Shown here in pieces: positions 9,701-22,377 of a stretch of 64,000 bases of DNA. Below the pieces are notes generated by a model. That model was given only the letters and a program-made list of their open reading frames with translations. It made no database searches and was not told where the DNA came from. Both the position numbers and the translations under genes were made by a program. Within the stretch, counting starts at the first letter, position 1. Each line of letters begins with the position of its first letter. This DNA comes from a virus (lineage: Duplodnaviria; Heunggongvirae; Uroviricota; Caudoviricetes). The DNA is taken from positions 1 through 64,000 of IMG/VR virus record IMGVR_UViG_3300014205_008670; one strand, written 5' to 3'.

Positions 9701-11413
9701 GGTAAGGCGTATAATACAGACCTACAAATAGATCTTCCGCCTACGTTAAACAATATTCTAAATACTTTAAAACAAAACAATTCATACGGATTGCTTGTTG
9801 GTGGTGCTGTCCGAGATAAATTTCTTGGTCTAGAACCAAAAGATTTAGATATAGAAGTTTATGGCATAAGCTATGAACAGCTTTTTAAAATCTTAAGTAA
9901 ATTTGATAGAAAAAATTCTCCAGATGTTGTTGGTAAATCATTTGGGATAATAAAAATAACAGATAACGAAGGTAATGACTATGATTTTTCAATTCCAAGA
10001 AGAGAATCAAAAACAGGAGTTGGACATCAGGGATTTTCTGTAGAGTTTGATCCTAATATTACTCCAAAGGAAGCTGCTGCAAGAAGAGACTTTACTATAA
10101 ACTCTTTGTCGTACGATCCTTTGACACATCAGGTTTTTGATTATTTTGGTGGTGTAGATGATATACAAAATAAAATTCTTAAAGCTACTTCTCCTGCATT
10201 TGCCGAAGATTCACTAAGGGCATTAAGAGGGATGCAGTTTGCCGGAAGATTTGGCTTTTCTTTAGAAGATCAAACAGCAGAAATGATAAGGGGTTTAATA
10301 AGCGATTATCCGTCTCTAGCTAAAGAACGTGTTTCTGGTGAATGGATGAAGTTTTTTACAAAGAGTAATCATCCCGGAAAAGCTTTAGAATTTTTAATTA
10401 AAAGTGGTTGGATAAAATTATATCCAGAAATAAATGCCTTTATTCCAGACAAATATGAAGAACAATTGTTAGAAGAAATAAAGTCAGATAATTATCCGGG
10501 TATTTCTGGACATAAAAGTATAAGGCAAGAGTTTGAATGGCATCCCGAAGGGTCTGTTTTACTTCACACAATTTATGTTTTAGAAGCTTCTGCAAAAATT
10601 GCTGACGAACAAAACATAAAGGGTGAAGACAGGGCTGTTATTTTAATGTCAGCATTATGTCACGATTTAGGTAAAGCTACACATACAAAAATAGAAAATA
10701 AAAAAGGAATACAAAGAGTAACTTCTCCGGGACATGAAGAGGCTAGTGTTCCTTTAGCTAAAACATTTTTAGAAAGTGTTGGAATCAAAAAAAATCTTAT
10801 TGACAGAGTTTTGCCATTAGTAGGAAATCATATGCAGCATATAACATATGATTCAAAATCTAAAAACGGAAATGTCAGACAAATTGCTGAAAGAATTTTT
10901 CCGGCTACAATAAGAGAATTAGAGTTAGTAATAAGATCAGATATGGGAGGAAGACCTCCATTACCCGGTGGGTTACCTCCAGAAGCAGAGCAAATGGTTT
11001 CTGACGCTAGAGAACATGGTGTTTATGAAGGTAAATATCAAAACCTAATTCAAGGAAGAGATTTGATTGAAGAGTTTAATCTTAAGCCCGGAATAATTAT
11101 GGGGGAAACATTAAAATTTGTTAGACAAAAAATGTTAGAGGGTTTGGTTTCCAGTCGTGAAGAAGCACTTATTGTTGCTGATGATTTTTTGAAGAGAAAA
11201 CAAAATTTTATTAACGGTAAAGATGTTTTAGAGGTAATGGAAACAGATAAAGGGGGACCGTTTGTAAAAGAAATATTAGATTTGGCATGGGAACAACAAA
11301 AAAATGGGACACTAAAGACAAGAGAAGAATCAATTAACTGGTTAATTGGATATGTTAAAGGTAATCTAGAAATAAAACCAGAAACAAACAACAACATTAT
11401 TTCAGAGGAATAA
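302..11413 (+). CDS. giant multidomain (polyvalent-type) protein, 3703 aa. N-terminal C39-like cysteine peptidase, internal ParB/Srx-like motif, Cys4 zinc ribbon, C-terminal class II CCA-adding/poly(A) polymerase head + HD phosphohydrolase domain
   Basis: Uninterrupted 11.1-kb ORF. N-terminus has KYSWDCGPHTF with a downstream SGHWVVLVGSDKDYLYFIDP His box, a papain-like C39 pattern. ITGHEGRHRMEALRR resembles the ParB/sulfiredoxin DGHHR box. CPDCG...CKDCG is a zinc ribbon. The C-terminus has LLVGGAVRDKFLGLEPKDLDIE (GGxVRD + DxD), RRDFTINSL (class II motif C), EDSLRALRGMQFAGRFGF (motif D), then HPEG...CHDLGK (HD domain). Confidence 0.85.
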   Translation: MPKILNVPKSKQKYSWDCGPHTFISIIKALKNTVPSENEIIKNLNADKKTGTDPLNYIEALNKENIKSHLMENPDIEKIKKAIISGNPVALIVQAYSDSKEEVINLKSGHWVVLVGSDKDYLYFIDPLSKSGITKIKESDFLYRWKNIVKKNQPEKRTAIVIDYKIDKIIKIKNDIDLMPMSLGTNKMNYWYKKASQEENIIEKLENDDYKSHEELISDLENSVLIWREVRLKNENIVILSTDGKKEYVAIVHDGYNDFDDIFDWFYGISDIDIYNYVDYLEENDFWEGVSEGYFLYHATDCKNIESIKEKGLIVDCKTRAITNRNMPCAVFSHPNDTSLDSYGDCVIGINVGLMKKDGYMPKTMKENGMEEAEVREILAHKLGIEDFDIYDELNKGMSQGLDPETIAFLGNIPPKYLIFPENIKANKSSSIKIATKMTQEDFIKQFNDFQKKINKVFEKYSYINPEYIKEYKEDFFKNLNRFIEHYDYTSLDLDELMKILDDISYAYKNAGWIMDSAFSKKQETKNISNLKDFRSEVYYLVMQFKKGFLENKNPEGRLDVLQEVFDLVDYSLDELSLKYKNYSEIIKKAVSIWSEAKTKIAEQIFQSPNRLFNYVRHFISKIEDLDTETSDIDFNSEINIKEHYYDGICPDCGMEIPENSKVNDSCKDCGHVFNLEYELTEEDLDRLEDSIDKEFREDLYRLGYNSLRKLEKFLNIEKTKEFEHYEGFEDFGNNIFLNNKSWYKLSQNEDHININFDPSGTGSTPNNLNIEYLGFTKYLTPNEFLSNAAPLQEVNEKTIQYFIDKYKNGEPISNPTFYAIYDEDKNVLEITGHEGRHRMEALRRVSPNEKVPVHIFPQGLRARHFVDKNVNEISFVPEKYSEKKYSGKNFIKNSANIGEQIDLFENDVELSPFTLLNGYFKILEEIKPYLDESVFVHFDQTNIDEMVQEEMESQGNDYANNYLENYDDIYGQLIHSLRDQGYFDEKENTYKSLLQEISNKIKVKSMEILSLEPFSKLVIDKINNNDFFLTKILNKEIFDDNENYFKNNEDVDILKNIYLNGDFNSICSQYVDINYLIDNFPSIFDYYSYRGLEKGPGYETLIPILNEYDDSNFSIEEEDLVDLIPYQSKIEWILEEYNDQILESIQEGTYYSLKESYSEMARKLGVGKNEKDLENFTILDLFVNAGINIIEDPENPEGSYSDSFIEELKGGVSYLYEFFKDNKDESVDFSENCLYLLKQMQEVSVSIVISGLNLDYDFYKDNVLSMFKNQLKLTYPGSFELNFAKFIMEMCHEYAEIRDEKKEEKDEILETYHLNISKKDELLSRISITKSEISSLEDLKKTGNISIVDYEKRNSELENKMEKENRRLETLEYDIKKIQEKLQVAQENIPEFLNLRNCNVAKILMNKIAVLLENKDKDSFFPKFCYITNQNVNRNVKKNWIAKNAIPFLETYLNTTPNPNGSIQILYQKMGPLAGTDRETIPQNVAAGKNYVLKWLSSRVFDSGEEIHNCIQPFFDHTIMGQQFLGKFLEDEFLGERNSNTINLVLRARKDLIEKKHLIPGEKNPPSEVLWSPSKKIENYIVPDKKRDILAYHEYSLALLYGGVGTGDTLGMFSVELLKEGYSNKAIEHFLSKINFEKGQNITPYSSNHGNFDFVITSKLDPINVVAGDKTNCCFSIGDAAESSLVDAFTNPDSGFLIVYIAGTKTLVAQSWIRLNYDSEKTPSLYLDNIETVSKYKFSTDLTKCFKLFAEKIKKDRNYKNVYVGKNLSKIIFHSPAIRPNDIPRFPGAKSGIYSDLSTGAWIIANKKTDKNWYKISGVEDFVSGIQNYDINEVIEKYPNESELNEEQKRNIRSISFSTNYGSSKSKTKLFLKYPQYTYYSLYVLEQYFLGYNPEEKEILLIWNKMDKEKDQNIPDSLPAYIYNDIAKNYTNMISTEFATNVFRNKTKYPGALIYACAKKFPDLYKCLNSNNPDTVLDSLLKKIEFPNEKNIEESIEITRNMVRPLNNIDGTVLSEEEYKKEKEIKNQNQKYFIDFFVELNKEEKKLFNILKRDSESNFTSIYSSSSYWNISLDSANLYLLLDKVLDSYKNKNNYIDKDSGFRVYNFTIKEKQLSYISFCGNLISKEILENIIKSLGSVTKKESEFSISKYDFNIYLNGEKKEVSINSEHISSPDNCFRRDRSNTNLSGFILQSFPLYEELYMDIFNKKYKNIIDETANENDFVLLKTDPLFYLLGELAGNEASYIFVNRHKVIDRETYNKISNPFSYSVTTNDFLELYKKIISKIPQNIRKSFEKQNIEHLFNFKINDPLKSNTWTYLCSGVFSPEFIQSLIEKWPEDARKVRNLIKSNSSEEVNNELKEKIDIFSDKKLKNLNKDISEFLLGQNNSKLFHVSDFPELKEFSTDFLNFFLKNNDKETYNYQESVNETKLQSALKNLEKIEIYIVDSHNLIEQFGEEQLRGYRIHPENISGFYSGPYNIFQKPNPIIVIFSDNTSSAEDICESVSEILGMRPIGSTGLNLRKEQTLWHETTHGLIDLAIGDIEKERNYYENTTTWLSDIEEVLTISYGNLDYIKNRVSEMVERTFPKDKKMIEGFIENLKKDLIKEFPLEFYGVYSEKAKIEIDEYVKEELPEILSKENMDSLKQSIVSMFSKFFLSKMLVQKFDSINSIGDDRNKLKFPSDKIVPEVNEEPYVQNKKDEFILELEKRSDYQDFINKVKERIKGITFSKNKDTMYEYKSYINNTKNNMSPIFTIYDLIRFIYDQNFYSLSDVDVNKINPYFEDIIPESLLNDITEYVIIEKEKLNIPLNIQEPEITSEEAEDLGNMIYDTRENIGKGWEWLAFNENKLYKKAKTNWYKISQHTNTLVCIDIQEEWKEYFSNIDMCDFFKFINSYDKTIYVVDSLASGIDFYSDYKAKLPKDLAFQFYNNSNEDKNNDEFDFDSLYEYGECPVSPKIDFQIKNYGGILREAIDAGMDNEVKFMLKSIINKDINEEKLDYIEETIKELDKHTGIDYWEKEFDFLEADQLAQKIYEKFSYHSSELIQGIPNDFWKSLGSIDICGGGINECLAEVTAALDILDVQYNIINKYTYGSNEKFYKNSLAKTLTNNDLSITVPNYRKESKMLTFAQMADGGKAYNTDLQIDLPPTLNNILNTLKQNNSYGLLVGGAVRDKFLGLEPKDLDIEVYGISYEQLFKILSKFDRKNSPDVVGKSFGIIKITDNEGNDYDFSIPRRESKTGVGHQGFSVEFDPNITPKEAAARRDFTINSLSYDPLTHQVFDYFGGVDDIQNKILKATSPAFAEDSLRALRGMQFAGRFGFSLEDQTAEMIRGLISDYPSLAKERVSGEWMKFFTKSNHPGKALEFLIKSGWIKLYPEINAFIPDKYEEQLLEEIKSDNYPGISGHKSIRQEFEWHPEGSVLLHTIYVLEASAKIADEQNIKGEDRAVILMSALCHDLGKATHTKIENKKGIQRVTSPGHEEASVPLAKTFLESVGIKKNLIDRVLPLVGNHMQHITYDSKSKNGNVRQIAERIFPATIRELELVIRSDMGGRPPLPGGLPPEAEQMVSDAREHGVYEGKYQNLIQGRDLIEEFNLKPGIIMGETLKFVRQKMLEGLVSSREEALIVADDFLKRKQNFINGKDVLEVMETDKGGPFVKEILDLAWEQQKNGTLKTREESINWLIGYVKGNLEIKPETNNNIISEE
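2650..2900 (+). other. ParB/Srx-like (ParB N-terminal nuclease-like) motif region within the giant protein
   Basis: LEITGHEGRHRMEALRRV resembles the ParB/sulfiredoxin GxxRxxA / DGHHR box. Weaker than the other domain calls. Confidence 0.4.
9740..10860 (+). other. class II tRNA nucleotidyltransferase (CCA-adding / poly(A) polymerase-like) head-neck plus HD domain, C-terminal part of the giant protein
   Basis: GGAVRD, DLDIE, RRDFTIN and EDxLRxLRxxRF motifs are present in canonical order. The downstream HD domain (H...HD...D) matches bacterial Cca. Confidence 0.8.
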
Positions 11414-11415
11414 TT

Positions 11416-11826
11416 ATGAATAACCCATTTTATAAGAAATCTTCAAAAAAAATTGCGGGTCCTTTTAACTTAAAAAATATTGATCAAAGAACTGAAAGAA
11501 GATATTATCAAACAACCTTAAAAGATCCTGTTAGTAGTATTTATATTCCTGAATATGATACAACTTATAATAGTGGAGAATATCTTGATACAAGAAGAAA
11601 CTATTTCAAAATAATAGGTATAAAAGAAGACTCTTCAGATGTTAATAATTCTATTTTTGAGCTTCAAGAATATGATCCTTTTGAAGGCAAAACTGTTGGA
11701 TCTATTGTAAGCAGAAAATTCTATCAGATAAATGGTTATGAGATAAGAAGTGAAGAGGAAATGAAATTAATTTCAGAATCTTTGAAAAAAGGTAAGTCTA
11801 ATAAAAGTGTAAATAGTAGATTTTAA
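11416..11826 (+). CDS. hypothetical protein starting with an NPFYKK motif
   Basis: ATG preceded by GAGGAA. N-terminus MNNPFYKKSSKK shares the peptide motif repeated in the 34029..36161 protein. Confidence 0.5.
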   Translation: MNNPFYKKSSKKIAGPFNLKNIDQRTERRYYQTTLKDPVSSIYIPEYDTTYNSGEYLDTRRNYFKIIGIKEDSSDVNNSIFELQEYDPFEGKTVGSIVSRKFYQINGYEIRSEEEMKLISESLKKGKSNKSVNSRF

Positions 11827-12139
11827 AATTTTCTATTATTTTCTATTCTTTGTTTTGATTCTTCAATTTCTTCAAACTTTATATTAAAAATAGCTTCAAT
11901 ACATTTAGTTGCATCTTCCATGTCTTCTATTATAAATTGATGGTTTTTCAAAGGCGTAAATGAAGTTTTAAATAGTTCTAGCAAAAATTTAATACTTACT
12001 ATTTGATCGGCTATCCTTTCTAGTTCTACTTGAATTTCTCTATTGTTGACATTTAGCATTTTGTCTTGTTCGTCTAGTTGTTTCGCTATTTCACGAACTA
12101 TTACAGGATTTGTTATTGATATTTTTTCAATAAGCATTT
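11823..12139 (-). CDS. hypothetical protein
   Basis: The track ORF starts at TTG (12179). An internal ATG at 12139 has GGAG 8 nt upstream and is the more likely start. The upstream track residues lie in a terminator palindrome. Confidence 0.45.
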
Positions 12140-12147
12140 TAGTCTCC

Positions 12148-12176
12148 AATAAAAAGGAGGAGGCACTGCCTCCTCC
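12148..12176 (-). terminator. intrinsic terminator downstream of the Hsp20 gene
   Basis: Perfect 10-bp inverted repeat GGAGGAGGCA-c-TGCCTCCTCC, followed on the - strand by TTTTTATT. Confidence 0.6.
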
Positions 12177-12203
12177 CAATTATTTCTATTTTAAATTAAA
12201 CTG

Positions 12204-12770
12204 TTATTCTATTTGAATCTTTTTCCTACTCTTTTCTTTCTTCTTTTCTTCAAAACTAAATGGAATCTTAATTTCAAGAATTCCATCCTTAGCGGTACTT
12301 TCAATTTTATCTATATCTTTAATGTTTTCAAATGAAACTGGAATTCTTCTTTCAAAGTTTGATTTCTTAACTTCTGAATAAAAAATTTCTTCGTTATTTT
12401 GACCTTCACTTGATTCTTTTTCCCCACTAACAATTAATGCTTGTTGCTCGTGATCATATTCTAAAGAAATTTTATTCTTGTCATATCCACTAATATGAAG
12501 TTTTAGTATGAGAATATCTTTTTCAAGATCTCTTAAAATTTCAAGACATGGAAATTTTGAGTTAGTTTGATATATTTCTTTTAATCTTGGTTTAAATCTA
12601 GGGCTTAATAGTTCATCTGCCAATTGATCTAAAGCATTAAGAACGTCATTTTCTCCAAACAAGGGGCTTGTAATACTTCTAAATGGAGATGTGGCTTTTA
12701 TTGAAAAAAACTCACTAGGAACTACACTACCTACACTACCTACACTACGACTACTGTTACGGTTTGTCAT
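12204..12770 (-). CDS. small heat-shock protein, Hsp20/alpha-crystallin family
   Basis: Alpha-crystallin domain pattern (LKLHISGYDKNKISLEYDHEQQALIVSGEKE ... DGILEIKIPF). Start moved to the ATG at 12770, which has a GGAGGT RBS; the track starts at a GTG at 12809. Confidence 0.7.
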   Translation of the reverse strand: MTNRNSSRSVGSVGSVVPSEFFSIKATSPFRSITSPLFGENDVLNALDQLADELLSPRFKPRLKEIYQTNSKFPCLEILRDLEKDILILKLHISGYDKNKISLEYDHEQQALIVSGEKESSEGQNNEEIFYSEVKKSNFERRIPVSFENIKDIDKIESTAKDGILEIKIPFSFEEKKKEKSRKKIQIE

Positions 12771-12862
12771 GGTCCGTACCTCCGAATTTATTTTAGGCTC
12801 TTTCGACACCTATAACATACCAAATTGGTCATGTCTCTTTTTTATACGACAAGAAATATTTT

Positions 12863-12900
12863 GGCCAAAAAATTGATTTTTTATTTTTACCATAATCACA
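12863..12900 (+). promoter_or_regulatory. candidate promoter with an upstream TTTGGCCA element (family member A)
   Basis: TTTTGGCCAAAAAATTGATT lies in the divergent intergenic region upstream of the 12930 CDS. The same GGCC(A)+TTGA arrangement recurs at 13521, 18514, 21099 and 49810. Confidence 0.3.
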
Positions 12901-12929
12901 ATAATCGTATCTTTTGTTGGAGAACAAAT

Positions 12930-13322
12930 ATGAGCGATAATATTAGAATGGTAATAGAAGACATTGTATCTTCTTATTTTGAAAAAATAAATTGGGAAAA
13001 TATTGTAGGACCTGCTGTTTTAGAAAAAATAGAAGTTAAAACTAAAGCAGACTATAATTTTGTTAATGAAATTGTTGATAGCATTTCTATGGCTTTATCT
13101 GATAATGTTTCTGGAGAACAAATAACAGAAGAAATAATGGAACAAATTAAACTTAGAACAGTTTCTTTTGACCAAACACCTAATGTTGAAGAATCTGGAA
13201 ATATGATTTGCTCTAAGTGTTACCGTCCGTTTGGAGTTTGGACATCAACCTCTGGAAATAGTTTCTCAGATCAAACAATAATTTCTAATGGAAAATCTAT
13301 ATTAATGATGGATGATTTCTAA
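12930..13322 (+). CDS. hypothetical protein
   Basis: ATG at 12930 with a GGAGAA RBS. The ATG at 12825 sits in a promoter-like region and is unlikely. Confidence 0.5.
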   Translation: MSDNIRMVIEDIVSSYFEKINWENIVGPAVLEKIEVKTKADYNFVNEIVDSISMALSDNVSGEQITEEIMEQIKLRTVSFDQTPNVEESGNMICSKCYRPFGVWTSTSGNSFSDQTIISNGKSILMMDDF

Positions 13323-13513
13323 TGAATAAAAAAGAATATGTTTTTGATAGTGAAAACCCAGATAAATATCCATTTGGATATAGTGTAGTAAAACGTAAAG
13401 AAAGAGCCGGAATGGAATATGATTTATATATTCCAAACTTACCTCCTATAGGCAATTGGACAAGATCTGTTGCTATTTTTAATAGCAGATTTATTTTTGT
13501 ATTAGAAAAATAA
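13322..13513 (+). CDS. hypothetical small protein
   Basis: ATGA overlap with the upstream gene suggests translational coupling. Confidence 0.35.
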   Translation: MNKKEYVFDSENPDKYPFGYSVVKRKERAGMEYDLYIPNLPPIGNWTRSVAIFNSRFIFVLEK

Positions 13514-13615: not shown

Positions 13616-14971
13616 ATGGATTTTAAAAAACTAACACGCTTTGTAGTTCCTGTTATTATTTTTGCAATTGTTCTTTTCAGTTTGCTTGCTGGCTCTTATC
13701 TTGTTGAAGAAGTAAGGGCTGGTGAATATCATATTGTTCAATATCCATCCGGCAAATTAGTGGCAAAGATGGAGCCGGGTTGGTATGGTCAATGGTTCGG
13801 AACGGTTACAAAATGGCCAAAAGCATTTACCCTTAACTTTGATCGGAATCCTGATACTACCGTTGATTCTCAGGCACAAAACGATATAGATATTACTGCA
13901 ATTGAAGTTAGGTTTGCAGACGGAACTATTGCTCCAATTGAAGGTTCGTTAAGAGGAGAACTTCCACGAAGTCCGGAAATGGCAGTTGATCTTGTTTCTA
14001 AATTTGGATATAGATCAGTTCATGAACTTGTAGAAAATCTTGTAGCAAGACGAGTCCGTGTGTCTGTTAATAGTTCTGCAACAATGATGACCGCAATTGA
14101 ATCTTCTTCAAGTCGAAGAAATGATTTCATTCAACATTCTTGGGATCAAATTCAAAACGGACTATATCATACTAATACAGTATCTCAAGTTGTAGAAGGA
14201 CAAGTAAAACAAGAAGTTAAAGTGGCTAAAATTACAATAGGACCAGACGGGAATCCTATTCGTCAAAACGAAACAGGTGGATTGGATGACTTAGGTGTTG
14301 TTTTATCAAACTTTGAAATTAAGTCCTTTATTTATCCGTCAGAGTTAGAAAAACAAATTGCAAGTCAAAGAGATGCAATTATGGCTATTTCAGTGGCTAG
14401 AGCTAATGCAGAAAAGGCAAACGAAGAAGCCAAAACATCAGAAGCTCAAGGTAAAGCCAAAGTTATGACGGCTCAATATGAAGAAGAACAAATGAAAATT
14501 CGTGCTACAGTTAAAGCTGATCAAGAAAAAGCAGTTGCTTTAATTATGGCAGAAAAAGAAAAACAACAAGCCACAATTGCGGCACAAAAAAGAGTTGAAG
14601 TTGCAGAGCTTGAAAAGGAAGAGGCTGAAATTCAAGCACGTAGAGGTTTGGAAGTTGCAAAACTTAATAGGCAAGCCTCTGAAGAAGAATCCGCAAGAAT
14701 TATTTCTCTTGGTGCAGCAGAAGCTAAAGCGAAACAAGCTGTTTTTAATGCAAATGGTGCATTAACAGAAAAACTTAAAGCTTGGACTGATGCACAAGTT
14801 GCTTGGGCGCAAGCATATGGTATTCGTAGAGTCCCCGGAATTGTTCTTGGAACAAAAACTGATGACGGAACCGAAACCCTAGACCTTCAAACAGCACTAA
14901 GTGTAAAGTTATTAAATGATCTTAATCTTGATCTTGGATTAAATTCAAATACTTCTCCAACAAACAACTAA
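13616..14971 (+). CDS. membrane-anchored SPFH/band-7 (HflK/C, flotillin-like) protein
   Basis: N-terminal TM helix (VVPVIIFAIVLFSLLAGSYL), a globular domain, then a long Ala/Glu/Lys-rich coiled coil typical of SPFH proteins. Strong RBS AAAGGAGAT. Confidence 0.5.
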   Translation: MDFKKLTRFVVPVIIFAIVLFSLLAGSYLVEEVRAGEYHIVQYPSGKLVAKMEPGWYGQWFGTVTKWPKAFTLNFDRNPDTTVDSQAQNDIDITAIEVRFADGTIAPIEGSLRGELPRSPEMAVDLVSKFGYRSVHELVENLVARRVRVSVNSSATMMTAIESSSSRRNDFIQHSWDQIQNGLYHTNTVSQVVEGQVKQEVKVAKITIGPDGNPIRQNETGGLDDLGVVLSNFEIKSFIYPSELEKQIASQRDAIMAISVARANAEKANEEAKTSEAQGKAKVMTAQYEEEQMKIRATVKADQEKAVALIMAEKEKQQATIAAQKRVEVAELEKEEAEIQARRGLEVAKLNRQASEEESARIISLGAAEAKAKQAVFNANGALTEKLKAWTDAQVAWAQAYGIRRVPGIVLGTKTDDGTETLDLQTALSVKLLNDLNLDLGLNSNTSPTNN

Positions 14972-14982: not shown

Positions 14983-15885
14983 ATGAAAATTTTGACTTCA
15001 AAAGACTTTGTGTTTAGCAATTTAAAAAAAGAAAATATTTCTGAAAATATTCTATCAGAAATTTCAACAAATTTCTTGGAAAAAATTGTTAGAGATATTT
15101 CGTATCCAAGACATTACACCGAAGAGTTTGAATCAAATAAAAAAGCCCGTAACTATATTGTAGAAGAATTAAAAAAGAATTCTTGGAATGTAAAACTTCA
15201 TGACTATTGTGATAATATTATTGCCACATTACCACCTTCTGAAAATCTTTCTAATTCTTCTAGAATTATTGGAGCTACACATTATGATAGTGTTCCTAAT
15301 TGCCCCGGGGCTGATGATAATGGTAGCGGAATAGCGGTTCTTTTGGCTGCTTCAAAAGTATTACCAAAAATGAATTTGAAAGTAAACCCAACTCTTATTT
15401 TCTTTAATCAAGAAGAAGATGGACTTTTGGGATCTTTTGAATTTGTAAAAAATAACAAAAAACAACTACGTGAAACAGTAAAGTCTGTGCATGTAATGGA
15501 AATGGTTGGTTATACATCTAACAAACAATTAACCCCAAAAGGATTTCCAGTAAGTATTGGAAATGTTGGTGATTTCTTGGGAATAGTTTCAAACAATAAA
15601 TCAAATATTGAATTGCTAAATCTTCTTAAGAAAAACGCAATTTATTGCCCAAACCTTCTTTCAAAGGGAATCTATCTATCAGAGGGATTTGAAAGAGTAT
15701 TTCAAGATGTAATTAGAAGTGATCATTATCCATTTTGGTTAGAAAAAATACCCGCCCTTATGTGGACAGATACTTCAAATTTTAGAAATTTTAATTATCA
15801 TAAATCAACAGACACATCAGAAACTTTAGATTATGGTTTTATGCACGAGGTTACAAAATTATTTGTTTCTTTATTTATAGAATAG
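14983..15885 (+). CDS. M28-family zinc aminopeptidase
   Basis: HYDSVPNCPGADDNGSG (His/Asp zinc ligands), NQEEDGLLGS (Glu-Glu) and a downstream DHYPF, the canonical M28 motifs in order. Confidence 0.8.
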   Translation: MKILTSKDFVFSNLKKENISENILSEISTNFLEKIVRDISYPRHYTEEFESNKKARNYIVEELKKNSWNVKLHDYCDNIIATLPPSENLSNSSRIIGATHYDSVPNCPGADDNGSGIAVLLAASKVLPKMNLKVNPTLIFFNQEEDGLLGSFEFVKNNKKQLRETVKSVHVMEMVGYTSNKQLTPKGFPVSIGNVGDFLGIVSNNKSNIELLNLLKKNAIYCPNLLSKGIYLSEGFERVFQDVIRSDHYPFWLEKIPALMWTDTSNFRNFNYHKSTDTSETLDYGFMHEVTKLFVSLFIE

Positions 15886-15895: not shown

Positions 15896-18508
15896 ATGTC
15901 TCTTAACAAAACAGATAGTGGCGTTTTTTACTTTGGGGTTCTTCCAGAAGAAGAAGTTTTAATTCAAGCTAGTCGTCATCTAGTTGATAACCGTTGTGTT
16001 TTTATGGGGTTAATGTCAGATTGTCACTTAGGGTATTCAACCCCAATAGGTGGAGTAGCTGTTTATAAAGATGTTATTTCTCCATCTGGAGTGGGATTTG
16101 ATATTTCATGTATTGTCGAAGGATCAGAGGTTACTACAGGTTCTGGAGAACTTGTAAGGATTGAGGATATCTCCAAAGAGAATGTGGGACTTACTATGAA
16201 GTTGTCCGGATCTCTTGTTGAAACAAATATTACTGGTGTATCTTGCAAAGAAGTCGAAGAAATATTAGAGATAGAATTAGAAAATGGAGATTTTATAAGA
16301 TTAACAGAAGATCATCTTCTTTTGACGGAATATGATGGCGTGAAATCTTGGCGGGAAGCAAATAGTTTTTCTATGGGAGACAGGATTATGGTCTCTCCTT
16401 ATATTGGTTGTAAAGGGAAATTAACGAAACATCATATTTTCATGAGAATTTTGGGATATTTGATGGGAGATGGACATCTTCCAAGAGATAGCAATAGAAG
16501 CGTTTTTTATTCTTCTATTGATAAAGATGCTGATTCCATTGCAAAAGATATAGAAAAATATTATGAGTATCTTGTTCATCAACAAGATATACAAAAATCT
16601 ATATCTGTAAATCCTAATGACATTCCATCTATAGATACAGTAAATGTTGGAATTTTTCGTAGGGACAAAAAAACTATTACAGGAAAAAACACAAGAGAAA
16701 ATTGTGTTTATTTTTTTTCCAGTTATATTAGGAAAGAATTTGAACTTTACGGGTGTCCTGTTGGTAAAAAAGAGTTTGATATTTCAAGACTACATGAAAT
16801 CTTTTCAAACCTTTCGTTGGTTGATAAGTCCAATTTCATCGGAGGGATTTTGGGCGCTGAAGCGGGATGTCCAAAAATTGGTAAGAATAATGTTTTTAAC
16901 CCTTGGATAAAGATGGGAGGTATAAACGGAAGAGATTTCTTGGAATTTATCTCTTCTCTTCTTGAGGAATTCGATTTCGAATCTCATATTACTCTCTCAA
17001 CTGAAGAAGATGGAGAAAAAAAAGCAACATATGTCCTCCAAATCATTGGAGGGATGGACGAGTTTGAAAGATTTTATAGAACTTTCAAATTTTTTTATTC
17101 TGATTATAAAGAGATAGAAAAGGCAAAAGTTCTTTCTTATATTTGGAGTAAAAAGAAAATAGTTAACAAAAAAATTGCAGCCAGAGAACTGTGTCGCTTT
17201 CTCAGGTCTCAAGGTTGCAAAGTGAATTCTTTGCATAAAGAAGCTTCTAAAATGCTTGGATATGAAGTAAATAAAAGATTTGCTCTAAGGTCCATTTATG
17301 AGGATTGCGGAGATCCAAGAATTAGTGAAGAAAAACCAATTATCAATACAAATGATCAAGGAATTTGGGTCAAGATTGTATCTATTAATAAACTTAAAGA
17401 AAAGACAAAAGTTTACGATATAGGAATTGACCATGTAGGTCATAACTTTATTGCAAATGGAGTAGTTGTGCATAACTGTGGGAATAAAGCTGTAAAGTTA
17501 AACATAAAGGGTGTTACTATAAGAAAAGATATAAAAAAAATAATTGAAGAAATATCGAAAAATATTTCATTTGGAGTAGGTAGATGCAATAACAAAAAAG
17601 TAGATCATGAATTGTTTGATGATCCTACTTGGAATTTAGATTGTATTAAAGAAATATCAAGAGGTGTTAACAAAAAAAATGATTTAAGAGATATGGCAAT
17701 ATCCCAATTGGGCACTATTGGTTCCGGAAATCACTATCTAGACCTGTTTGTAGACGAAAATGATGATGTATGGATTGGAGTTCATTTCGGATCTCGTGGA
17801 CTTGGACATAAAATAGCAACATATTTTCTACATGAAGCTGGTGGAAAAGATGATATTAATGCCTATCCTACATTAATTAGTGTAAATAGCGACTTAGGAC
17901 AAGAGTATATTTCTTGTATGAAGCTGGCTGGTAGATATGCCTATGCCGGAAGAGATTGGGTTTGTAATACTGTTGCAAATATACTTCGTGGTAAAATAAT
18001 AGAAGAAGTACATAACAATCATAATTTTGCATTTGAAGAAACTCATTTTGGAGAAAGTTATTGGGTTATTAGAAAAGGTGCCACGCCTGCTTTTCCGGGT
18101 CAAAAAGGTTTTGTTGGCGGAAGCATGGGAGATAACAGCGTAATTATTGAGGGTGTAGACTCAGAAGAATCAAGACAATCATTTTATTCAACGGTACATG
18201 GCGCTGGTCGTGTTATGGGAAGAATGGAAGCTAAAGGAAAGTTTAAACAAAAAAAAGATTCTTCAGGGAAAAAAACCGGAGAATTTGAATGTGTAAGAGA
18301 ACCTAAAGTAAAAAAAGAAGATATGCTAAAATGGATTAAAGAAAAGGGAGTTGAACTTTATGGTGCAGATGTTGATGAATCTCCATTTGTTTATAAAAGA
18401 TTAAATGAAGTTCTTGGGTTTCATTCAAACACAATAAAAATCCTTCATGACTTACAACCAATTGCAGTAATGATGGCTGGTAACGAAAGAGATCCGTACA
18501 AAGATTGA
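15896..18508 (+). CDS. rtcB: RtcB RNA ligase (3'-phosphate/5'-OH) interrupted by an intein
   Basis: N-extein has SDCHLGYSTPIGGV and SPSGVGFDIS, followed by the C-extein CGNKAV. Extein total is ~414 aa, like E. coli RtcB. The 456-aa insert has LAGLIDADG blocks. Confidence 0.85.
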   Translation: MSLNKTDSGVFYFGVLPEEEVLIQASRHLVDNRCVFMGLMSDCHLGYSTPIGGVAVYKDVISPSGVGFDISCIVEGSEVTTGSGELVRIEDISKENVGLTMKLSGSLVETNITGVSCKEVEEILEIELENGDFIRLTEDHLLLTEYDGVKSWREANSFSMGDRIMVSPYIGCKGKLTKHHIFMRILGYLMGDGHLPRDSNRSVFYSSIDKDADSIAKDIEKYYEYLVHQQDIQKSISVNPNDIPSIDTVNVGIFRRDKKTITGKNTRENCVYFFSSYIRKEFELYGCPVGKKEFDISRLHEIFSNLSLVDKSNFIGGILGAEAGCPKIGKNNVFNPWIKMGGINGRDFLEFISSLLEEFDFESHITLSTEEDGEKKATYVLQIIGGMDEFERFYRTFKFFYSDYKEIEKAKVLSYIWSKKKIVNKKIAARELCRFLRSQGCKVNSLHKEASKMLGYEVNKRFALRSIYEDCGDPRISEEKPIINTNDQGIWVKIVSINKLKEKTKVYDIGIDHVGHNFIANGVVVHNCGNKAVKLNIKGVTIRKDIKKIIEEISKNISFGVGRCNNKKVDHELFDDPTWNLDCIKEISRGVNKKNDLRDMAISQLGTIGSGNHYLDLFVDENDDVWIGVHFGSRGLGHKIATYFLHEAGGKDDINAYPTLISVNSDLGQEYISCMKLAGRYAYAGRDWVCNTVANILRGKIIEEVHNNHNFAFEETHFGESYWVIRKGATPAFPGQKGFVGGSMGDNSVIIEGVDSEESRQSFYSTVHGAGRVMGRMEAKGKFKQKKDSSGKKTGEFECVREPKVKKEDMLKWIKEKGVELYGADVDESPFVYKRLNEVLGFHSNTIKILHDLQPIAVMMAGNERDPYKD
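16109..17476 (+). mobile_element. intein with LAGLIDADG homing-endonuclease domain inserted at the RtcB catalytic Cys
   Basis: Starts at Cys (CIVEGSEV), ends ...NGVVVHN with +1 Cys. DOD motifs ILGYLMGDGHL and IGGILGAEAG. The flanking exteins rejoin to the RtcB DISCG active-site motif. Confidence 0.75.
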
Positions 18509-18513
18509 AAAGT

Positions 18514-18555
18514 GGCCAAAATAGTATTGCGGTTCAAAATGGTTTGTCGTACATA
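18514..18555 (+). promoter_or_regulatory. candidate promoter (GGCCA element, -35 TTGCGG, 17 nt, -10 TACATA) driving the Y-RNA region
   Basis: GTGGCCAAAATAGTATTGCGG-17nt-TACATAT. The -10-like TCGTACAT is shared with the 49810 promoter. Confidence 0.3.
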
Positions 18556-18609
18556 TATACCATAGTTGTTGAGCAAGAAAGTCTGTTCTTTGAAATTGTA
18601 GTAAGATTT

Positions 18610-18748
18610 TTACATTAGGTCGGACTGAGTTGATTATCCGCTCAGAGGTCCAAACGCAGGTTCGAATCCTGCCCAACTAGTAGTACTGGTTGGTCGTCTA
18701 GCGGTTCAGGACGGGAAAAAACTCAACTCTAATTTTTATCTAATGTAA
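18610..18748 (+). ncRNA. YrlA-like Y RNA with a circularly permuted tRNA-like module (T-arm, acceptor stem, D-arm) closed by a long-range helix
   Basis: T-arm GCAGG-TTCGAAT-CCTGC (18656-72). Acceptor 3' strand CCAACTA (18673-79), 5-nt loop, acceptor 5' strand CTGGTTGG. D-arm GTCT-AGCGGTTCA-GGAC (18696-712). Flanking strands TTACATTAG...GAGTTGA (18610-33) and TCAACTC...CTAATGTAA (18723-48) are complementary. GGTCGGA resembles the conserved Ro-binding GGUCCGA. Confidence 0.5.
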
Positions 18749-18749
18749 T

Positions 18750-19000
18750 TTAAAAATTAATGGGTCGAATGAAAACGATTATCAAATGCCTATTCGTTCT
18801 CAACTTTTTTATCCATTATTAAATTTCAACAATCTTGCAGGGCTTCGTTCCTGTTAGGTTGTTGAGACCCTGGTCAAAGGAAGGCAATCCCGAAGATTGC
18901 CTTCCCTAAAAATCTTCTGGGTCGTAGTAATTGATTATCCCTTCGATAGAGAACCGAGGAATCTTCCTCGTTACTTTCAATTACAGTTTTATCCAGAATT
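18750..19000 (+). ncRNA. possible additional Y-RNA-like modules or structured RNA
   Basis: Two more copies of the GGTCG-N-GATTATC motif (18762-90, 18919-41). Perfect 11-bp hairpin GGAAGGCAATC-ccgaag-GATTGCCTTCC at 18878-906. CGAGGA-atct-TCCTCG hairpin. No credible ORF. Confidence 0.25.
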
Positions 19001-19324
19001 TTTTATACGGTCTTACTATAGCTTTAGTTTAAATAACTTAAAACGTCAAGACATCTTTATTAACCATTCAATACAGCGACAGATTGTAGAATTAAAAATT
19101 CTATTTGTATTGAAATTAACTTATCAGAATTTAAAATAAAAATTCAGGTCGTATTTTGTAGATTACCCTTCCAATCAGAAAGAACAAATGATGTCTTGTT
19201 CGTAAATCTGTCAAAAACAAAACAAATTAATCCATGAGATTTATTTGTTTTTCTACAAAAAACTTTTATCTGGTTTTATTTTAAATTCTGAACACTTTAT
19301 TCCTACTATATAAGGAGTCGAATT

Positions 19325-21010
19325 ATGAGTGTTAAGGCTTATAAAAATATTGGAAAAAGAAATGCTGAAAAAAAGGCAACTCAAGGAACAAAGCTTGAGG
19401 GTCAAGTAAAAAATCATGATGGAGCATATGTATATAAGGTAGATGATTGGAATAAACTTGATCGTTTCCTTTTTCTTGGTACAGAAAATGGAAGTTACTA
19501 TGCTTCAGAAAAAAAACTTACCAAAGAAAGTGTAAAGAATATTTTGAAGCTTTTGGAGCTAGATGGGAAGAAGGTTGTTGATCGTGTTGTTGAAATTTCT
19601 CTTCTTGGATCAGCCCCAAAGAATGATCAGGCTTTATTTGTTCTTGCTTTAGCCTCTGCTGATAAAAATGTAGAAACTCGTAGAGCCGCATTTAATGCTC
19701 TTTCAAAAGTTGCTAGAATTGGTACTCATCTTTTCCATTTCGTAGAATTTCGTGAACAATTTGCTGGTTGGGGAAAAGGAATGAGAAAGGCTATTTCTAG
19801 TTGGTATGGAGATAAAGACCTTAAGGACCTTTCATTTCAGCTTGGAAAATATCAATCTCGTGATGGTTGGTCAAATAGAGACTTACTAAGACTTTCTCAT
19901 GCAAATCCTAAAGAGGATGAAAATAGATCTACTATTTATAAGTGGGTAGTTAGCCCAAAAGAAGTTAATGGAGATTACCTCAAGGTGGCTTCTCCTATTC
20001 TTAGTGCTTTTGATGAAATTAAATCTACTGATGATGAAAAAAGAATTTTAGAGCTTGTTACTGAGTTTAAACTTCCTCTAGAAATGATTCCTACCGATAA
20101 ACGTAGCCGTAAGGTTTATGAAGTAATGTTGAATAATTTTGGCATTACTGCACTTATTAGAAATCTAGGAAAACTTAGTGAATGTGGAATTCTTGATTCA
20201 GGTAACTTTTCTGAAGTGAATAAGGTTGTTAATAGACTAACAAACGTTGATGAAATTAAAAAAGGTCGTGTTCATCCTATTTCTACCCTAATGGCATTGC
20301 TTGTATATAAGAATGGTAAAGGGGTTAAAGGTGATTTGACTTGGAAACCAAATCCAAAAATCATTGACGCACTTAATGAGGCTTTTTATCTTGGATTTGA
20401 CTCAATTGAATCAACTGGAAAAAACATAATGCTTGCATTGGATGTTTCTGGTTCTATGAATAGCCCTATTGGTGGAACATTTCTTACTTGTCGAGAGGCG
20501 AGTGCAGCAATGGCAATGGCTGTTGCAAAAACAGAAAAGAACTACTTGATAACAAGTTTTAGTTCTAAGGGAAATGGATATTTATCTGGCGGACATAGAT
20601 TCTATGACAAATCTATCAGCAATGATTTCTTTAACGTGTCTGGATTAACTGAATTAAATATTACAAATAAAACAAAACTACCTGAAGTAATGGATAGTGT
20701 TAATAATCTTGATTTTACTGCCACAGATTGTTCTCTTCCAATGAGATGGGCTTTAAAAAACAAAATTAAATTTGATGCCTTTGTTGTTTATACAGACAAT
20801 GAAACTAACTGTTACAACCAAATCCAACCATCAGCGGCATTAAAGAGATATCGTGAAGAAATGGGAATAGATGCAAAGTTAATTGTAAATGCAATGACAG
20901 TTACTGATTTTACAATTGCAGATCCAAATGACAAAGGAATGCTTGATTGTATCGGATTTTCAAGTGATACCCCTCAAGTTATATCTCGCTTTATTAAAAA
21001 CGAATTCTAA
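19325..21010 (+). CDS. rsr: Ro60/Rsr ortholog (TROVE domain + vWA domain with MIDAS)
   Basis: N-terminal TROVE-like region. C-terminal vWA with MLALDVSGSM (DxSGS MIDAS). RBS AAGGAG. Confidence 0.8.
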   Translation: MSVKAYKNIGKRNAEKKATQGTKLEGQVKNHDGAYVYKVDDWNKLDRFLFLGTENGSYYASEKKLTKESVKNILKLLELDGKKVVDRVVEISLLGSAPKNDQALFVLALASADKNVETRRAAFNALSKVARIGTHLFHFVEFREQFAGWGKGMRKAISSWYGDKDLKDLSFQLGKYQSRDGWSNRDLLRLSHANPKEDENRSTIYKWVVSPKEVNGDYLKVASPILSAFDEIKSTDDEKRILELVTEFKLPLEMIPTDKRSRKVYEVMLNNFGITALIRNLGKLSECGILDSGNFSEVNKVVNRLTNVDEIKKGRVHPISTLMALLVYKNGKGVKGDLTWKPNPKIIDALNEAFYLGFDSIESTGKNIMLALDVSGSMNSPIGGTFLTCREASAAMAMAVAKTEKNYLITSFSSKGNGYLSGGHRFYDKSISNDFFNVSGLTELNITNKTKLPEVMDSVNNLDFTATDCSLPMRWALKNKIKFDAFVVYTDNETNCYNQIQPSAALKRYREEMGIDAKLIVNAMTVTDFTIADPNDKGMLDCIGFSSDTPQVISRFIKNEF

Positions 21011-21028
21011 CAATTACTGTTTATATCA

Positions 21029-21064
21029 AAAGCCTCAATTTCTAGAAATAGGTTTTGAGGCTTT
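21029..21064 (+). terminator. possible terminator hairpin after rsr
   Basis: AAAGCCTCAA ... TTGAGGCTTT, a 10-bp stem with a large 16-nt loop and a weak U tract. Confidence 0.3.
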
Positions 21065-21098
21065 ATCGTATTTAATTGTGTAAAATAATTTTACATAA

Positions 21099-21136
21099 GG
21101 CCAGTTGTTGACAAACAACAAAAAGTATTGAAAATA
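21099..21136 (+). promoter_or_regulatory. candidate promoter (GGCCA element, -35 TTGACA, 17 nt, -10 AAAATA)
   Basis: AAGGCCAGTTGTTGACA-17nt-AAAATA upstream of the IF3 gene. Confidence 0.3.
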
Positions 21137-21184
21137 AAGAAGTTACACATATTCTTAGGAAAGAAATTAGGAGAAAATTTTTAA

Positions 21185-21685
21185 ATGACAACAGAGTACG
21201 TTGCTAATGATGAGATTAGTTTTCAGGAAGTTACAGTAATCAATACAAATGGAGAAAATTTAGGGATTAAAAGGTTAGAGGAAGCACTAGAAATTGCTTC
21301 AAATGAAGACTTAGATCTTGTTGTTGTAAATCCAGATCCAGAGAATCCGGTTTGTAAAATCATAGACCTTTCAAAGTTTAGATATGAAAAGCGTCAAAAA
21401 GATAAGAAAAATCCAAAAAGACATAAAACAAAAGAAATTAGAATTTCTGTAAACATAGAAGAACATGATCTTAATATTAAAACTAAAAATATTGATAGAT
21501 TTTTGTCTCAAGGTTCAAATGTTCTTGTTAATATTAAATTTCCTACCCGCCAAAGAGATACAATTTCACTAACTATTAGCGAAATATTAAATAAAATTCA
21601 AACCCTTTTAAACACAAAACACCAAATTGAACTTGGTTCTTATGGTAGTTCTAATTATTCTACGGAGATTATTCCAATTAAATGA
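21185..21685 (+). CDS. infC: translation initiation factor IF-3 homolog
   Basis: ISFQEVTVINTNGENLGIKRLEEALEIASNEDLDLVVVNPDPENPVCKIIDLSKFRYEK aligns nearly residue for residue with the E. coli IF3 N-domain/linker (...[27 protein letters not shown]). The C-domain is also alignable. Confidence 0.85.
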   Translation: MTTEYVANDEISFQEVTVINTNGENLGIKRLEEALEIASNEDLDLVVVNPDPENPVCKIIDLSKFRYEKRQKDKKNPKRHKTKEIRISVNIEEHDLNIKTKNIDRFLSQGSNVLVNIKFPTRQRDTISLTISEILNKIQTLLNTKHQIELGSYGSSNYSTEIIPIK

Positions 21686-22377
21686 TTAATGTTCAAGAGC
21701 CTCCTAGGGTCTTGAATGAATATCAACGTGATGATAAAATATTAAAAAACCTTTACTTAGTAAACATTGTTGCAAAAGAGTATCGTTTTTTAGAAAACTC
21801 AAAATATGAGGATCTTATTCAAGAAGGACGAATCGGACTCATTAAAGCAGTAGATAAATTCGATCCAATCATAGGAACCAATTTTAAAACATATGCATTA
21901 TATCACATAAAATATAACATTCAAGATTTTCTTAGAAAAGAGTCATCTTTAGTATATATTCCTTATAATCGTCTTTGCAAGGCTTTTCGTCTACAAAGAT
22001 TTATACATTCTTTTATTCAAAATAAAAATGGAACCCCTCCTTCTGAAAAAGAAATGAGGGGTTTTCTTCATTGTAACTCAACATATCTAACAGATATACT
22101 GTTGATTGTGTTGATCTTAAATAATAAAATCAACAATATTGAAGAAAAATATTCGTATAGTAGTAATATGCATGTCAATATATTTAATTTAAATATTACT
22201 TCTATGATGAAAAGTCTTTACTATGAGGAAGAGTTGGTTTTAAAAGAAAAATATTTTGAAAACAAATCATTTAGAGAAATAGGTAGTATTTTAAATTTTT
22301 CACATGAAAAAATTAGAAAAATTCACAATAATGGTCTTTTGAGACTTAAATCTCTTTTGAAAGATTTAGAGGAATAA
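21682..22377 (+). CDS. sigma-70 family RNA polymerase sigma factor (regions 2 and 4)
   Basis: Region 2 RIGLIKAVDKFDPIIGTNFKTYALYHIKYNIQDFL. C-terminal HTH FREIGSILNFSHEKIRKIHNNGLLRLK (region 4). ATGA overlap with IF3. Confidence 0.7.
   Translation: MINVQEPPRVLNEYQRDDKILKNLYLVNIVAKEYRFLENSKYEDLIQEGRIGLIKAVDKFDPIIGTNFKTYALYHIKYNIQDFLRKESSLVYIPYNRLCKAFRLQRFIHSFIQNKNGTPPSEKEMRGFLHCNSTYLTDILLIVLILNNKINNIEEKYSYSSNMHVNIFNLNITSMMKSLYYEEELVLKEKYFENKSFREIGSILNFSHEKIRKIHNNGLLRLKSLLKDLEE

Follow-up and report, generated by a model that had tools for sequence, protein, structure and literature searches.

Do the RNA-repair and translation genes that lie side by side on a huge-phage genome act as one system, or do they share no more than a neighbourhood? 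This question is raised by positions 9740-22377 of a 64,000-nucleotide (nt) stretch of tailed-phage DNA (IMG/VR record IMGVR_UViG_3300014205_008670, positions 1 to 64,000; Caudoviricetes), which was analysed over its whole length and is called the window here. A sequence-only reading of this region had named a CCA-adding domain, the RNA ligase RtcB, Ro60 with its Y RNA, a homologue of initiation factor 3 (IF3) and a sigma-70-family factor, and had proposed that together they form an arsenal against host defences that cleave tRNAs or rRNA. Homology searches of each protein, together with a covariance model for the Y RNA, place every named element where that reading had put it and find the catalytic signatures of the enzymes kept. 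The proposed start fits that of the CCA module, which we place near nt 9671-9794, and the proposed end coincides with that of the sigma gene. The parts list is thus right, whereas the single tight unit did not hold up. The CCA-adding domain is present as the last module of an open reading frame (ORF) of 3703 amino acids (aa) rather than as a separate gene, RtcB is interrupted by an intein, and Ro60 is accompanied by four Y-RNA-like units rather than one. The region reads best as three adjacent modules, not one operon, in a lineage-specific accessory stretch of a low-GC huge phage.

Four Y-RNA-like units, W1 to W4 (Table 1), lie in the 816 nt that separate RtcB from Ro60. Each unit starts with (G/A)GGUCG(G/A/U)A...(G/A)AUUA(U/C)C and finishes with a U-rich stretch and AUC(C/U). 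Four copies of the motif GGTCG..TTA[TC]C are found, each on the plus strand between RtcB and Ro60, and none elsewhere in the window. The plain motif GGTCGRA is not enriched window-wide (3 found, 2.9 expected), so that the evidence comes solely from the composite motif and where it lies. A covariance model, R1, built from the units of two relatives (L002 and L008) alone, with no window sequences, finds W1 at 18617-18745 with 67 bits (E 5e-14). Its second- and third-best matches on both strands of the 64-kb window are W2 (22.4 bits, E 0.002) and W3 (17.8 bits, E 0.02), and W4 is not detected by it. The Rfam YrlA family (RF02553) matches weakly at 18626-18733, with 18.1 bits against a gathering threshold of 69; units of L002 score 46.1, 44.4 and 36.8 bits with this family (E 2e-8 to 9e-6), again under the threshold.

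The units share an architecture in which a GGGU/AUCC closing helix is joined by an internal loop to a second helix of varying yet complementary sequence. Duplexes between cognate 5' and 3' strands have a mean energy of -9.6 kcal/mol, compared to -3.9 kcal/mol for non-cognate pairs, and none of 20000 permutations is as good. For W2, the cognate stem has -7.0 kcal/mol against a non-cognate mean of -2.7 kcal/mol; the cognate stems of W3 and W4 each rank 1 of 22. Compensatory changes are observed at 14 of the 35 pairs of the consensus fold. Since the single-sequence fold z-scores are weak for W1 (-1.5), W2 (-0.5) and W3 (-1.3), the support for these three units comes from covariation and from the independent model, not from stability; the z-score of W4 is -2.96. 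W1 and several of the relatives' units are arranged as in YrlA, with an additional T-arm (GGUUCGA loop), acceptor-like hairpin and D-arm. This tRNA-like domain is found in W1 only among the window units, and W2 to W4 are without it, as YrlB-type RNAs are. The published YrlA 5' motif GNCGAAN0-1G, similar to the GGUCCGA that Ro60 contacts in vertebrates (PMC4201824), is present in W2 as GUCGAAUG, and W1 (GUCGGA), W3 and W4 (both GUCGUA) are each one mismatch off. Taken together, the predicted assignment of the array to Y RNAs is well supported, and W4 is a divergent yet conserved variant. The fold of the two hairpins between W2 and W3 has an energy of -40.2 kcal/mol and a z-score of -6.15, with 0 of 200 shuffles as stable, and no U-tract follows them.

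At the equivalent place, L002 has 10 units, L008 has 7 and L012 has 1. In other viral Ro60 loci, R1 finds 32 sites distributed over 24 loci, all of them on the strand of Ro60; where the flanks are complete, the sites lie about 1 kb or less from Ro60, usually one or two per locus. R1 and the simple motif can now pick out phage Y RNAs, whose arrays reach 10 units. An unrelated high-GC viral contig (L099) carries six tandem Y-like units on its minus strand (7292-7870; GCGGGUCGGA N7 CGGUUAUC ... ACAUCCGC) immediately ahead of a Ro60 with 39% identity, so multi-unit arrays are not limited to the clade of the window.

Several further features of the relatives' arrays were observed. Upstream of Ro60, L002 (7047-10001) and L008 (7764-10001) have gene-free stretches of 2.2-3 kb that hold their 10 and 7 units. 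These arrays include two or three GC-richer spacers of 450-600 nt, conserved between both loci and resembling large structured RNAs; no convincing Rfam family match was found for the spacers, and a RAGATH-33 candidate in an L002 spacer was rejected as chance (25.7 bits against 120). An inverted repeat (L002 7131-7160 and 9449-9478) flanks most of the array in the manner of a processing stem. Within the same array, a tRNA-like gene at 9107-9187 scores 50 bits with the Rfam tRNA family and has a 14-nt anticodon loop, from which ARAGORN reads the 4-base anticodon 'taaa'; this gene could be intron-bearing, a frameshift suppressor or a decoy. Unit B4 of L008 (9165-9296) pairs the 5' strand of one type with the 3' strand of another (stem of -3.0 kcal/mol, rank 14 of 22) and looks like a recombinant or decaying copy. 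The 5' strand GGGUCGGA N6-8 GGUUAUC, seen at 18617-18640 and in L002 units, presumably resembles the 5' ends of human Y RNAs such as hY4 (UGGUCCGAUGGUAGUGGGUUAUC), which we take as a lead only; the Rfam metazoan Y_RNA model gave no match on 18300-19500 at E values up to 10.

The Ro60 gene that follows the array encodes a full-length homologue of Rsr. Pfam detects the TROVE domain with 125.7 bits and vWA_Ro60 with 194.9 bits (E 1e-57), the residues D373, S375 and S377 of the metal ion-dependent adhesion site (MIDAS) are invariant in the clade alignment, and the NCBIfam Rsr model is matched with 501.5 bits over positions 9-530 of 531. The protein is 69%, 65% and 59% identical to its homologues P0002, P0003 and P0004. 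The 5' motif of the Y RNAs recurs at the translation start of this gene. Among 57 non-redundant viral loci, G[UC]CGAA occurs at most 30 nt upstream of the Ro60 start in 14, including the window, L002, L008, L019, L044, L050 and L058, compared to 9 of 1055 other ORFs from these loci that are led by a Shine-Dalgarno (SD) sequence (binomial p 6e-17, with loci counted as independent despite shared ancestry). The motif is placed either between the SD and the AUG (AAGGAGTCGAATTATG in the window, GGAGGGTCGAATCATG elsewhere) or just 5' of the SD (CGAGCCGAA N5-8 GGAG). This suggests translational feedback by Ro60 on its own gene; no description of Ro60 binding to its own mRNA was found in our literature search. 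The presence of the motif in a quarter of viral Ro60 genes offers a testable idea for how Ro60 levels are set, and it is the most original lead of this analysis. In the scan of IMG/VR for Ro60, a single-protein query gave nothing and an alignment query was needed.

On the other side of the array, the RtcB precursor matches Pfam RtcB with E 2e-60 (205 bits against a gathering threshold of 27), and in-silico splicing joins its exteins to a protein of 414 aa. The intein is inserted directly before the metal-binding Cys of the DIxCGN motif, with the junctions ...GFDIS|CIVEG...VVVHN|CGNKAV, in which Cys1, the His-Asn pair and the +1 Cys are canonical. The splice junction is fixed because the L002 orthologue, of 427 aa, is intein-free and reads ...GYDIACGNKAV: removal of the intein recreates DISCGNKAV, matching DIACGNKAV of L002. 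In an alignment with the P. horikoshii enzyme (1uc2), spliced RtcB keeps DISCG, GSGNHY, HFGSRGLGH, NHN and STVHGAGR. The P. horikoshii enzyme uses Cys98, Asn202/His203, His234, His329 and His404 for metal binding and as nucleophile, and its gene presumably has an intein at the same site.

In the CCA module, Pfam detects the PolyA_pol head domain at aa 3165-3293 (E 7e-21, 75.2 bits against a cut-off of 23), an HD domain at aa 3421-3515 and tRNA_NucTran2_2 at aa 3582-3624; PolyA_pol_RNAbd is matched weakly (E 0.0014, 18.8 bits), under its curated cut-off of 22. The module also matches the tRNA nucleotidyltransferases of PHROG 2244 (E 2e-62). Motifs A-D of the head domain are intact in the alignments (GGAVRD, DLD, RRDFTIN and AEDSLR), in the contexts LLVGGAVRDKFLGLEPKDLDIEV, ARRDFTINS and FAEDSLRALR, and the HD motif is LCHDLGK. 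The top NCBIfam match is PRK10885, 'multifunctional CCA addition/repair protein' (E 1e-42). An SD-like AAGGAA and an ATG at 9660-9673 precede Met3124, so the CCA module may be translated separately from an internal start. The C-terminus of a 1265-aa L008 protein, whose N-terminal part is unrelated, matches the module with 73% identity, and in two further giant proteins (3064 and 3624 aa) an internal module is 52-53% identical to it.

These two proteins are the only large homologues of the 3703-aa protein that a word-indexed search of 5.8 billion proteins returned, a type of search that distant relatives can escape. A possible artefactual origin of the ORF was rejected in view of its 11-kb stop-free frame in DNA of 26% GC and of these homologues. 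The order of the modules is shuffled between the giant homologues (P0131 and P0132) and the window protein. Module boundaries are marked by the motif NWYK[KI][SA]Q, found at aa 191, 743, 1814 and 2857 of the window protein and in seven copies in each giant homologue; it may serve for cleavage or targeting, or be left over from gene fusion. LWHExxH is invariant in a common module of about 700 aa (aa 2173-2863). Only 33 homologues of this HExxH module are found among 1.84 billion representative proteins, most of them of about 1000-1100 aa, which in the alignment consensus begin with MNWY and finish with NWYKxA; one is fused with a CCA-type module and one with a GNAT domain. The N-terminus of the giant ORF is a C39-like peptidase according to Pfam, and Pfam and PHROGs give nothing for aa 191-3100, even at E values up to 1. 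With a C39-like peptidase, an HExxH module, a nucleotidyltransferase and an HD domain within 3703 aa, the protein has the composition of the 'polyvalent' phage proteins, whose repertoire it widens to tRNA repair.

IF3 and the sigma factor form the third module. The IF3 homologue matches Pfam IF3_N (E 4e-25, 88.1 bits against 26.9), and its C-domain, which the sequence-only reading had allowed might lack conserved residues, is complete: IF3_C is matched with E 1e-13 (51.1 bits against 34.8), the infC equivalog TIGR00168 is passed with 135.7 bits against 60, and the C-domain of an AlphaFold (AF2) model superimposes on 1tig in Foldseek with a template modelling (TM) score of 0.84 and a root-mean-square deviation of 1.6 Å over 84 columns. 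The model has a mean predicted local distance difference test (pLDDT) score of 69.8 and displays an N-domain, a linker helix and a beta-alpha-beta-alpha-beta-beta C-domain. The motifs had been called near-identical to those of bacterial IF3, which is overstated, as the protein is about 35% identical to E. coli IF3 (46-51% to its clade orthologues) and carries the replacements R99S and R131P. Mutagenesis of E. coli IF3 implicates the C-domain arginines R99, R112, R116, R129, R131, R133 and R168 in ribosome binding. The window protein retains R116 and R133, has Lys in place of R112 and R129 and is unalignable at R168; Y75 and D106 are also kept. The window protein is thus predicted to be a real but divergent IF3. 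The sigma factor passes Sigma70_r2 (50.1 bits against 24), Sigma70_r4 (29.2 against 24.1) and TIGR02937 (82.5 against 42.9) and matches the PHROG 351 sigma factor with E 5e-27. The IF3-sigma pair is present in 4/4 clade members. A word-based search for IF3 homologues, in which 74 candidates were scored, gave no host clue, and a metagenome scan with the clade IF3 alignment added a single short clade member.

Table 1. Features of the window considered here (window positions; aa, amino acids).
Feature	Position	Strand	Remarks
Giant modular ORF, 3703 aa	302-11413	+	C39-like peptidase N-terminal, unassigned modules, HExxH module, CCA/HD C-terminal
Class II CCA-adding nucleotidyltransferase and HD phosphohydrolase module	9671-11413	+	aa 3124-3703 of ORF 302-11413
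Hsp20/alpha-crystallin small heat-shock protein	12204-12809	-	Pfam HSP20, E 1e-9; kept in L002 and L008
SPFH/Band-7 protein	13616-14971	+	Pfam Band_7, PHROG 11908; not an RNA gene
M28-family metallopeptidase	14983-15885	+	Pfam Peptidase_M28, E 9e-29
RtcB RNA 3'-phosphate/5'-OH ligase precursor, 870 aa	15896-18508	+	Pfam RtcB
Intein, 456 aa, with LAGLIDADG homing endonuclease	16109-17476	+	Pfam Intein_splicing 66.8 bits, LAGLIDADG_3 27.9 bits
Leader of the small-RNA array	18509-18616	+	Aligns with the L002 and L008 equivalents though the upstream gene differs in each
Y RNA W1, YrlA type	18617-18741	+	Ro60-binding stem, T-arm (GCAGGTTCGAATCCTGC), acceptor-like hairpin, D-arm
Y-like W2, mini unit	18762-18814	+	GGGUCGAAUG stem, short loop
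Two strong hairpins between W2 and W3	18824-18905	+	Fold of 18820-18917
Y-like W3	18919-18994	+	Third-best R1 match
Y-like W4, variant (AGGUCGU...UUUUAUCU)	19146-19271	+	Orthologues directly upstream of Ro60 in L002 and L008
Ro60 ribosome-binding region AAGGAGTCGAATTATG	19309-19327	+	Contains the Y-RNA 5' motif GUCGAA
Ro60/Rsr orthologue, TROVE and vWA, DVSGS MIDAS motif	19325-21010	+	Pfam
Terminator-like hairpin AAAGCCTCAA...TTGAGGCTTT	21029-21064	+	3' of the Ro60 stop codon
IF3 homologue, 166 aa: N-domain, linker helix, complete C-domain	21185-21685	+	Pfam, NCBIfam, model
Sigma-70-family factor, regions 2 and 4	21682-22377	+	Start overlaps the IF3 stop (ATGA)

Starting from the observed gene identities, catalytic motifs, intein junctions, RNA covariation and clade synteny, we infer from homology the activities and substrates of these modules, their link to defence and their cooperation. 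The explanation that we favour, with moderate confidence, is that an RtcB/Y RNA/Rsr repair set, a CCA module for tRNA ends and an IF3-sigma takeover pair serve phage translation upon RNA damage. The first module (rtcB, Y array, rsr) would be a phage version of the Rsr/Y RNA/RtcB system with which bacteria repair and survey RNA. Once its intein is spliced out, RtcB would reseal breaks with 2',3'-cyclic-phosphate (or 3'-phosphate) and 5'-OH ends. Ro60/Y RNA complexes process misfolded RNA together with polynucleotide phosphorylase (PNPase); here, the Ro60 ring would load one of the four Y-like RNAs, one of them being a YrlA-type tRNA mimic, and the complex would catch misfolded or broken RNAs and hand them to a host 3'-5' exonuclease. 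Class II CCA enzymes that carry an HD domain both rebuild the 3' ends of tRNAs and heal them, and the second module, a CCA-adding nucleotidyltransferase with HD domain of the E. coli multifunctional type, would restore damaged tRNA 3' ends. IF3 governs the availability of 30S subunits and start-site fidelity; the translationally coupled IF3 and sigma factor of the third module would redirect host ribosomes and RNA polymerase to phage messages. Jointly, the modules would keep the translation apparatus serving the phage while RNA is damaged. Infection-triggered defence nucleases are most likely the selective reason for the first two modules, and a counter-defence role of the gene set is plausible.

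How closely the three modules belong together can be judged from the relatives. The order Hsp20, small ORFs, variable genes, Y array, Ro60, a CTP_transf_like gene, IF3, sigma and a 1371-aa gene is kept in L002 and L008, with protein identities of 46-73%. The CTP_transf_like (cytidylyltransferase-fold) gene, of 165-180 aa in the relatives, has been lost in the window, where tblastn with the relatives' protein finds no remnant in the 174-nt gap that contains the hairpin (21011-21184). In the variable part, the SPFH and M28 genes are window-only and L002 has other genes there. Several observations weigh against a joint function. RtcB is found in the window and in L002 and is missing from the L008 neighbourhood, the unrelated Hsp20, SPFH and M28 genes lie between the modules, and between Ro60 and IF3 there are a terminator-like hairpin behind the former and a promoter-like site ahead of the latter. 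Since the promoter scan does no better than shuffles (51 found, 47.6 expected), it gives no basis for calling transcription units. In 80 other IMG/VR viral loci, with up to 10 kb on each side of Ro60 where the contig allowed, neither RtcB nor IF3 nor this sigma factor was found near Ro60 (0/80), and a CCA-type enzyme was found near it in only one; further loci found by the Y-RNA motif likewise lack such an association. Phage Phosso has both Ro60 and IF3, 90 kb apart. The clustering is a property of one small clade, and the co-location may therefore reflect inherited gene order as much as selected linkage. These same observations, including the variation of the interspersed genes among relatives, make it quite improbable that the 12 kb form a single co-regulated counter-defence programme against tRNA- or rRNA-cleaving defences, as originally proposed, despite a location of all but two genes on one strand within 12.6 kb, a core order conserved in the clade and a concept that is published for jumbo phages (PMC7824862).

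Other points against the joint service of phage translation concern the individual parts. The phage is uncultured and known here from sequence alone. The R99S and R131P replacements of IF3 affect two arginines implicated in 30S binding and occur in all three clade members. Ro60 stays below the Rsr equivalog cut-off of 900. The CCA module misses the Cca equivalog cut-off by far (PRK10885, 146 bits against 451), and PcnB-type NCBIfam models match it too, so that its specificity may be for CCA addition, A addition or polyadenylation. RtcA and polynucleotide kinase were not seen in general domain scans of the larger ORFs, and ARAGORN finds no tRNA gene in the window. A pure housekeeping and takeover role, in which the phage would depend less on host RNA maintenance and initiation factors over a long infection with no link to immunity, is doubtful, though it deserves real weight. 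In huge phages, IF1 and IF3 are common, as are CCA-adding enzymes, ribosomal proteins and sigma factors, all read as translation redirection (PMC7162821); phage records with Ro60, with RtcB and with CCA enzymes number in the hundreds apiece and come from many hosts, and bacterial Rsr and Y RNA work in rRNA quality control and stress responses (PMC4201824). However, the sole known chemistry of RtcB seals ends left by metal-independent RNases, the class of anticodon nucleases and many toxins (PMC7824862), and damaged tRNAs switch on the Salmonella rsr-yrlBA-rtcBA operon (PMC7790460).

The Y array could also act mainly as a decoy or sponge, whose tRNA-like and stem-only RNAs would titrate host nucleases aimed at tRNAs, or sensors that bind tRNAs, while Ro60 keeps the RNAs stable. 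The mimicry of tRNA T-arm, D-arm and acceptor stem by W1 and several of the relatives' units, and the expansion to 4-10 units in the clade and 6 in an unrelated viral contig, would fit such a role. But window units other than W1 are without the tRNA-like domain, and YrlA has no anticodon arm, the usual target of anticodon nucleases (PMC4201824), which makes the decoy very improbable. Two bolder extensions of the favoured reading, a repair set in the service of phage translation, are speculative and unlikely; neither is described in the literature searched. In one, the CCA/HD module would be cargo of a giant protein that is processed by a protease, packaged in the capsid and injected, so that repair of tRNA 3' ends would begin ahead of any phage gene expression; 25-30 kb downstream of the giant ORF, the same strand encodes the portal protein and the prohead protease. 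In the other, the Y arrays and the motif at the Ro60 start would form a titration circuit in which free Ro60 represses translation of its own gene and is relieved of this role by Y RNAs or damaged RNAs.

The wider window is low-GC DNA (26-39% G+C) with almost all long ORFs on the plus strand, very large ones encoding 3703, 1371, 1831, 1160 and 1876 aa. PHROGs identify a portal protein at 36675-40157, a prohead-protease domain at the start of ORF 40949-46579, and homing endonucleases. The sequence is also contained in a 99-kb metagenome contig (ENA ERZ27247358), and the contigs that bear its closest relatives span 65-349 kb; from the head genes and these contig sizes, the window belongs to a huge tailed phage. 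In Megablast, the region matched none of 50,697 phage records, so that no deposited phage is alike at the DNA level, and Rfam at gathering thresholds reports no RNA genes in the window. Several ORFs of the 12-kb region have no domain matches; tblastn of the SPFH/Band-7 protein gives no match in the L002 or L008 neighbourhoods, from which the M28 peptidase gene is absent as well. Elsewhere in the window, the portal ORF (1160 aa) has an endonuclease-like stretch at aa 277-391, a 1876-aa protein has the prohead-protease domain as its N-terminus, and ORFs 49822-52020 and 51986-53716 match LAGLIDADG/HNH homing endonucleases as well as methyltransferase-like proteins. These ORFs are a further indication of mobile insertions and gene fusions.

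Proteins of these families are widespread in phages. In deposited phage records, tblastn finds IF3 in 98, Ro60 in 355, RtcB in 611 and CCA-type nucleotidyltransferases in 468; many of the IF3 genes are so annotated, which does not agree with the earlier remark that phage IF3 is rarely reported. RtcB, TROVE, CCA-adding enzyme and IF3 have been catalogued in jumbo phages and read as RNA repair, ribosome support and counter-defence (Iyer et al. 2021, PMC7824862), and IF1, IF3, CCA-adding enzymes and sigma-70 have been described in huge phages, for which a counter-defence reading is likewise in print (Al-Shayeb et al. 2020, PMC7162821). The window resembles these sets in its components (RtcB, TROVE/Ro60, CCA enzyme, IF3 and sigma-70) and in the proposed rationale, namely that RNA cut by host effectors is mended and translation redirected; it differs in packing the components into 12.6 kb and in having the CCA enzyme as a module of a 3703-aa protein instead of a free-standing one. 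Two-domain IF3 proteins 33-35% identical to that of the window are found in 121Q/PBECO4-like jumbo coliphages and in Sinorhizobium phage Phosso, whereas the IF3 of the window clade is coupled to a sigma factor, directly downstream of Ro60.

The closest system is the rsr-yrlBA-rtcBA operon of Salmonella Typhimurium, together with the Rsr/Y RNA/PNPase system of Deinococcus. As in that operon, RtcB, Rsr and Y RNAs are adjacent on one strand in the window, with one YrlA-type Y RNA and a GNCGAA-like 5' motif. Contrary to the Salmonella operon, the order is rtcB, Y array, rsr, RtcB has an intein, four Y-like units are present (10 in a relative) and not two, no RtcA cyclase or RtcR/sigma-54 regulator is seen in the window region, and the genes are phage-borne. 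The Ro60 and YrlA loci of actinobacteriophages (Chen et al. 2014, PMC4201824) likewise have a phage Ro60 adjoining a YrlA-like RNA. Their Ro60 is about 40% identical to that of the window, whose clade differs by expanded arrays with stem-only mini units and by the IF3 and sigma genes directly downstream of Ro60. With T4 Pnk/Rnl1, which acts on tRNA-Lys cleaved by PrrC, the window would share the proposed reversal of tRNA cleavage by a host anticodon nuclease; however, RtcB joins the ends directly, with neither kinase-phosphatase healing nor an ATP-grasp ligase, and none was noted in the window.

The CCA module has the GGxVRD, DxD, RRD and EDxxR motifs and the HD domain of E. coli Cca (class II, HD), from which it differs by its fusion behind about 3100 residues of unrelated modules. 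In this respect it is close to the polyvalent proteins (Iyer et al. 2017, PMC5512222), which are also huge polypeptides with unrelated catalytic domains, peptidases and nucleotidyltransferases of the Pol-beta superfamily; one relative fuses a GNAT domain, and the window phage has a portal-terminase type head module. Polyvalent proteins are predicted to be packaged and injected; that survey names no CCA-adding enzyme, the term 'CCA' occurring in it 0 times (PMC5512222). The gene set as such has already been described for giant phages, and the window is a new example, not a new system. Its less ordinary features are the expanded Y array, the CCA module in a giant protein, the intein at the catalytic Cys of RtcB and the coupled IF3-sigma pair, in a compact region where a phage RtcB/Y RNA/Ro60 system stands together with tRNA-end repair and takeover factors.

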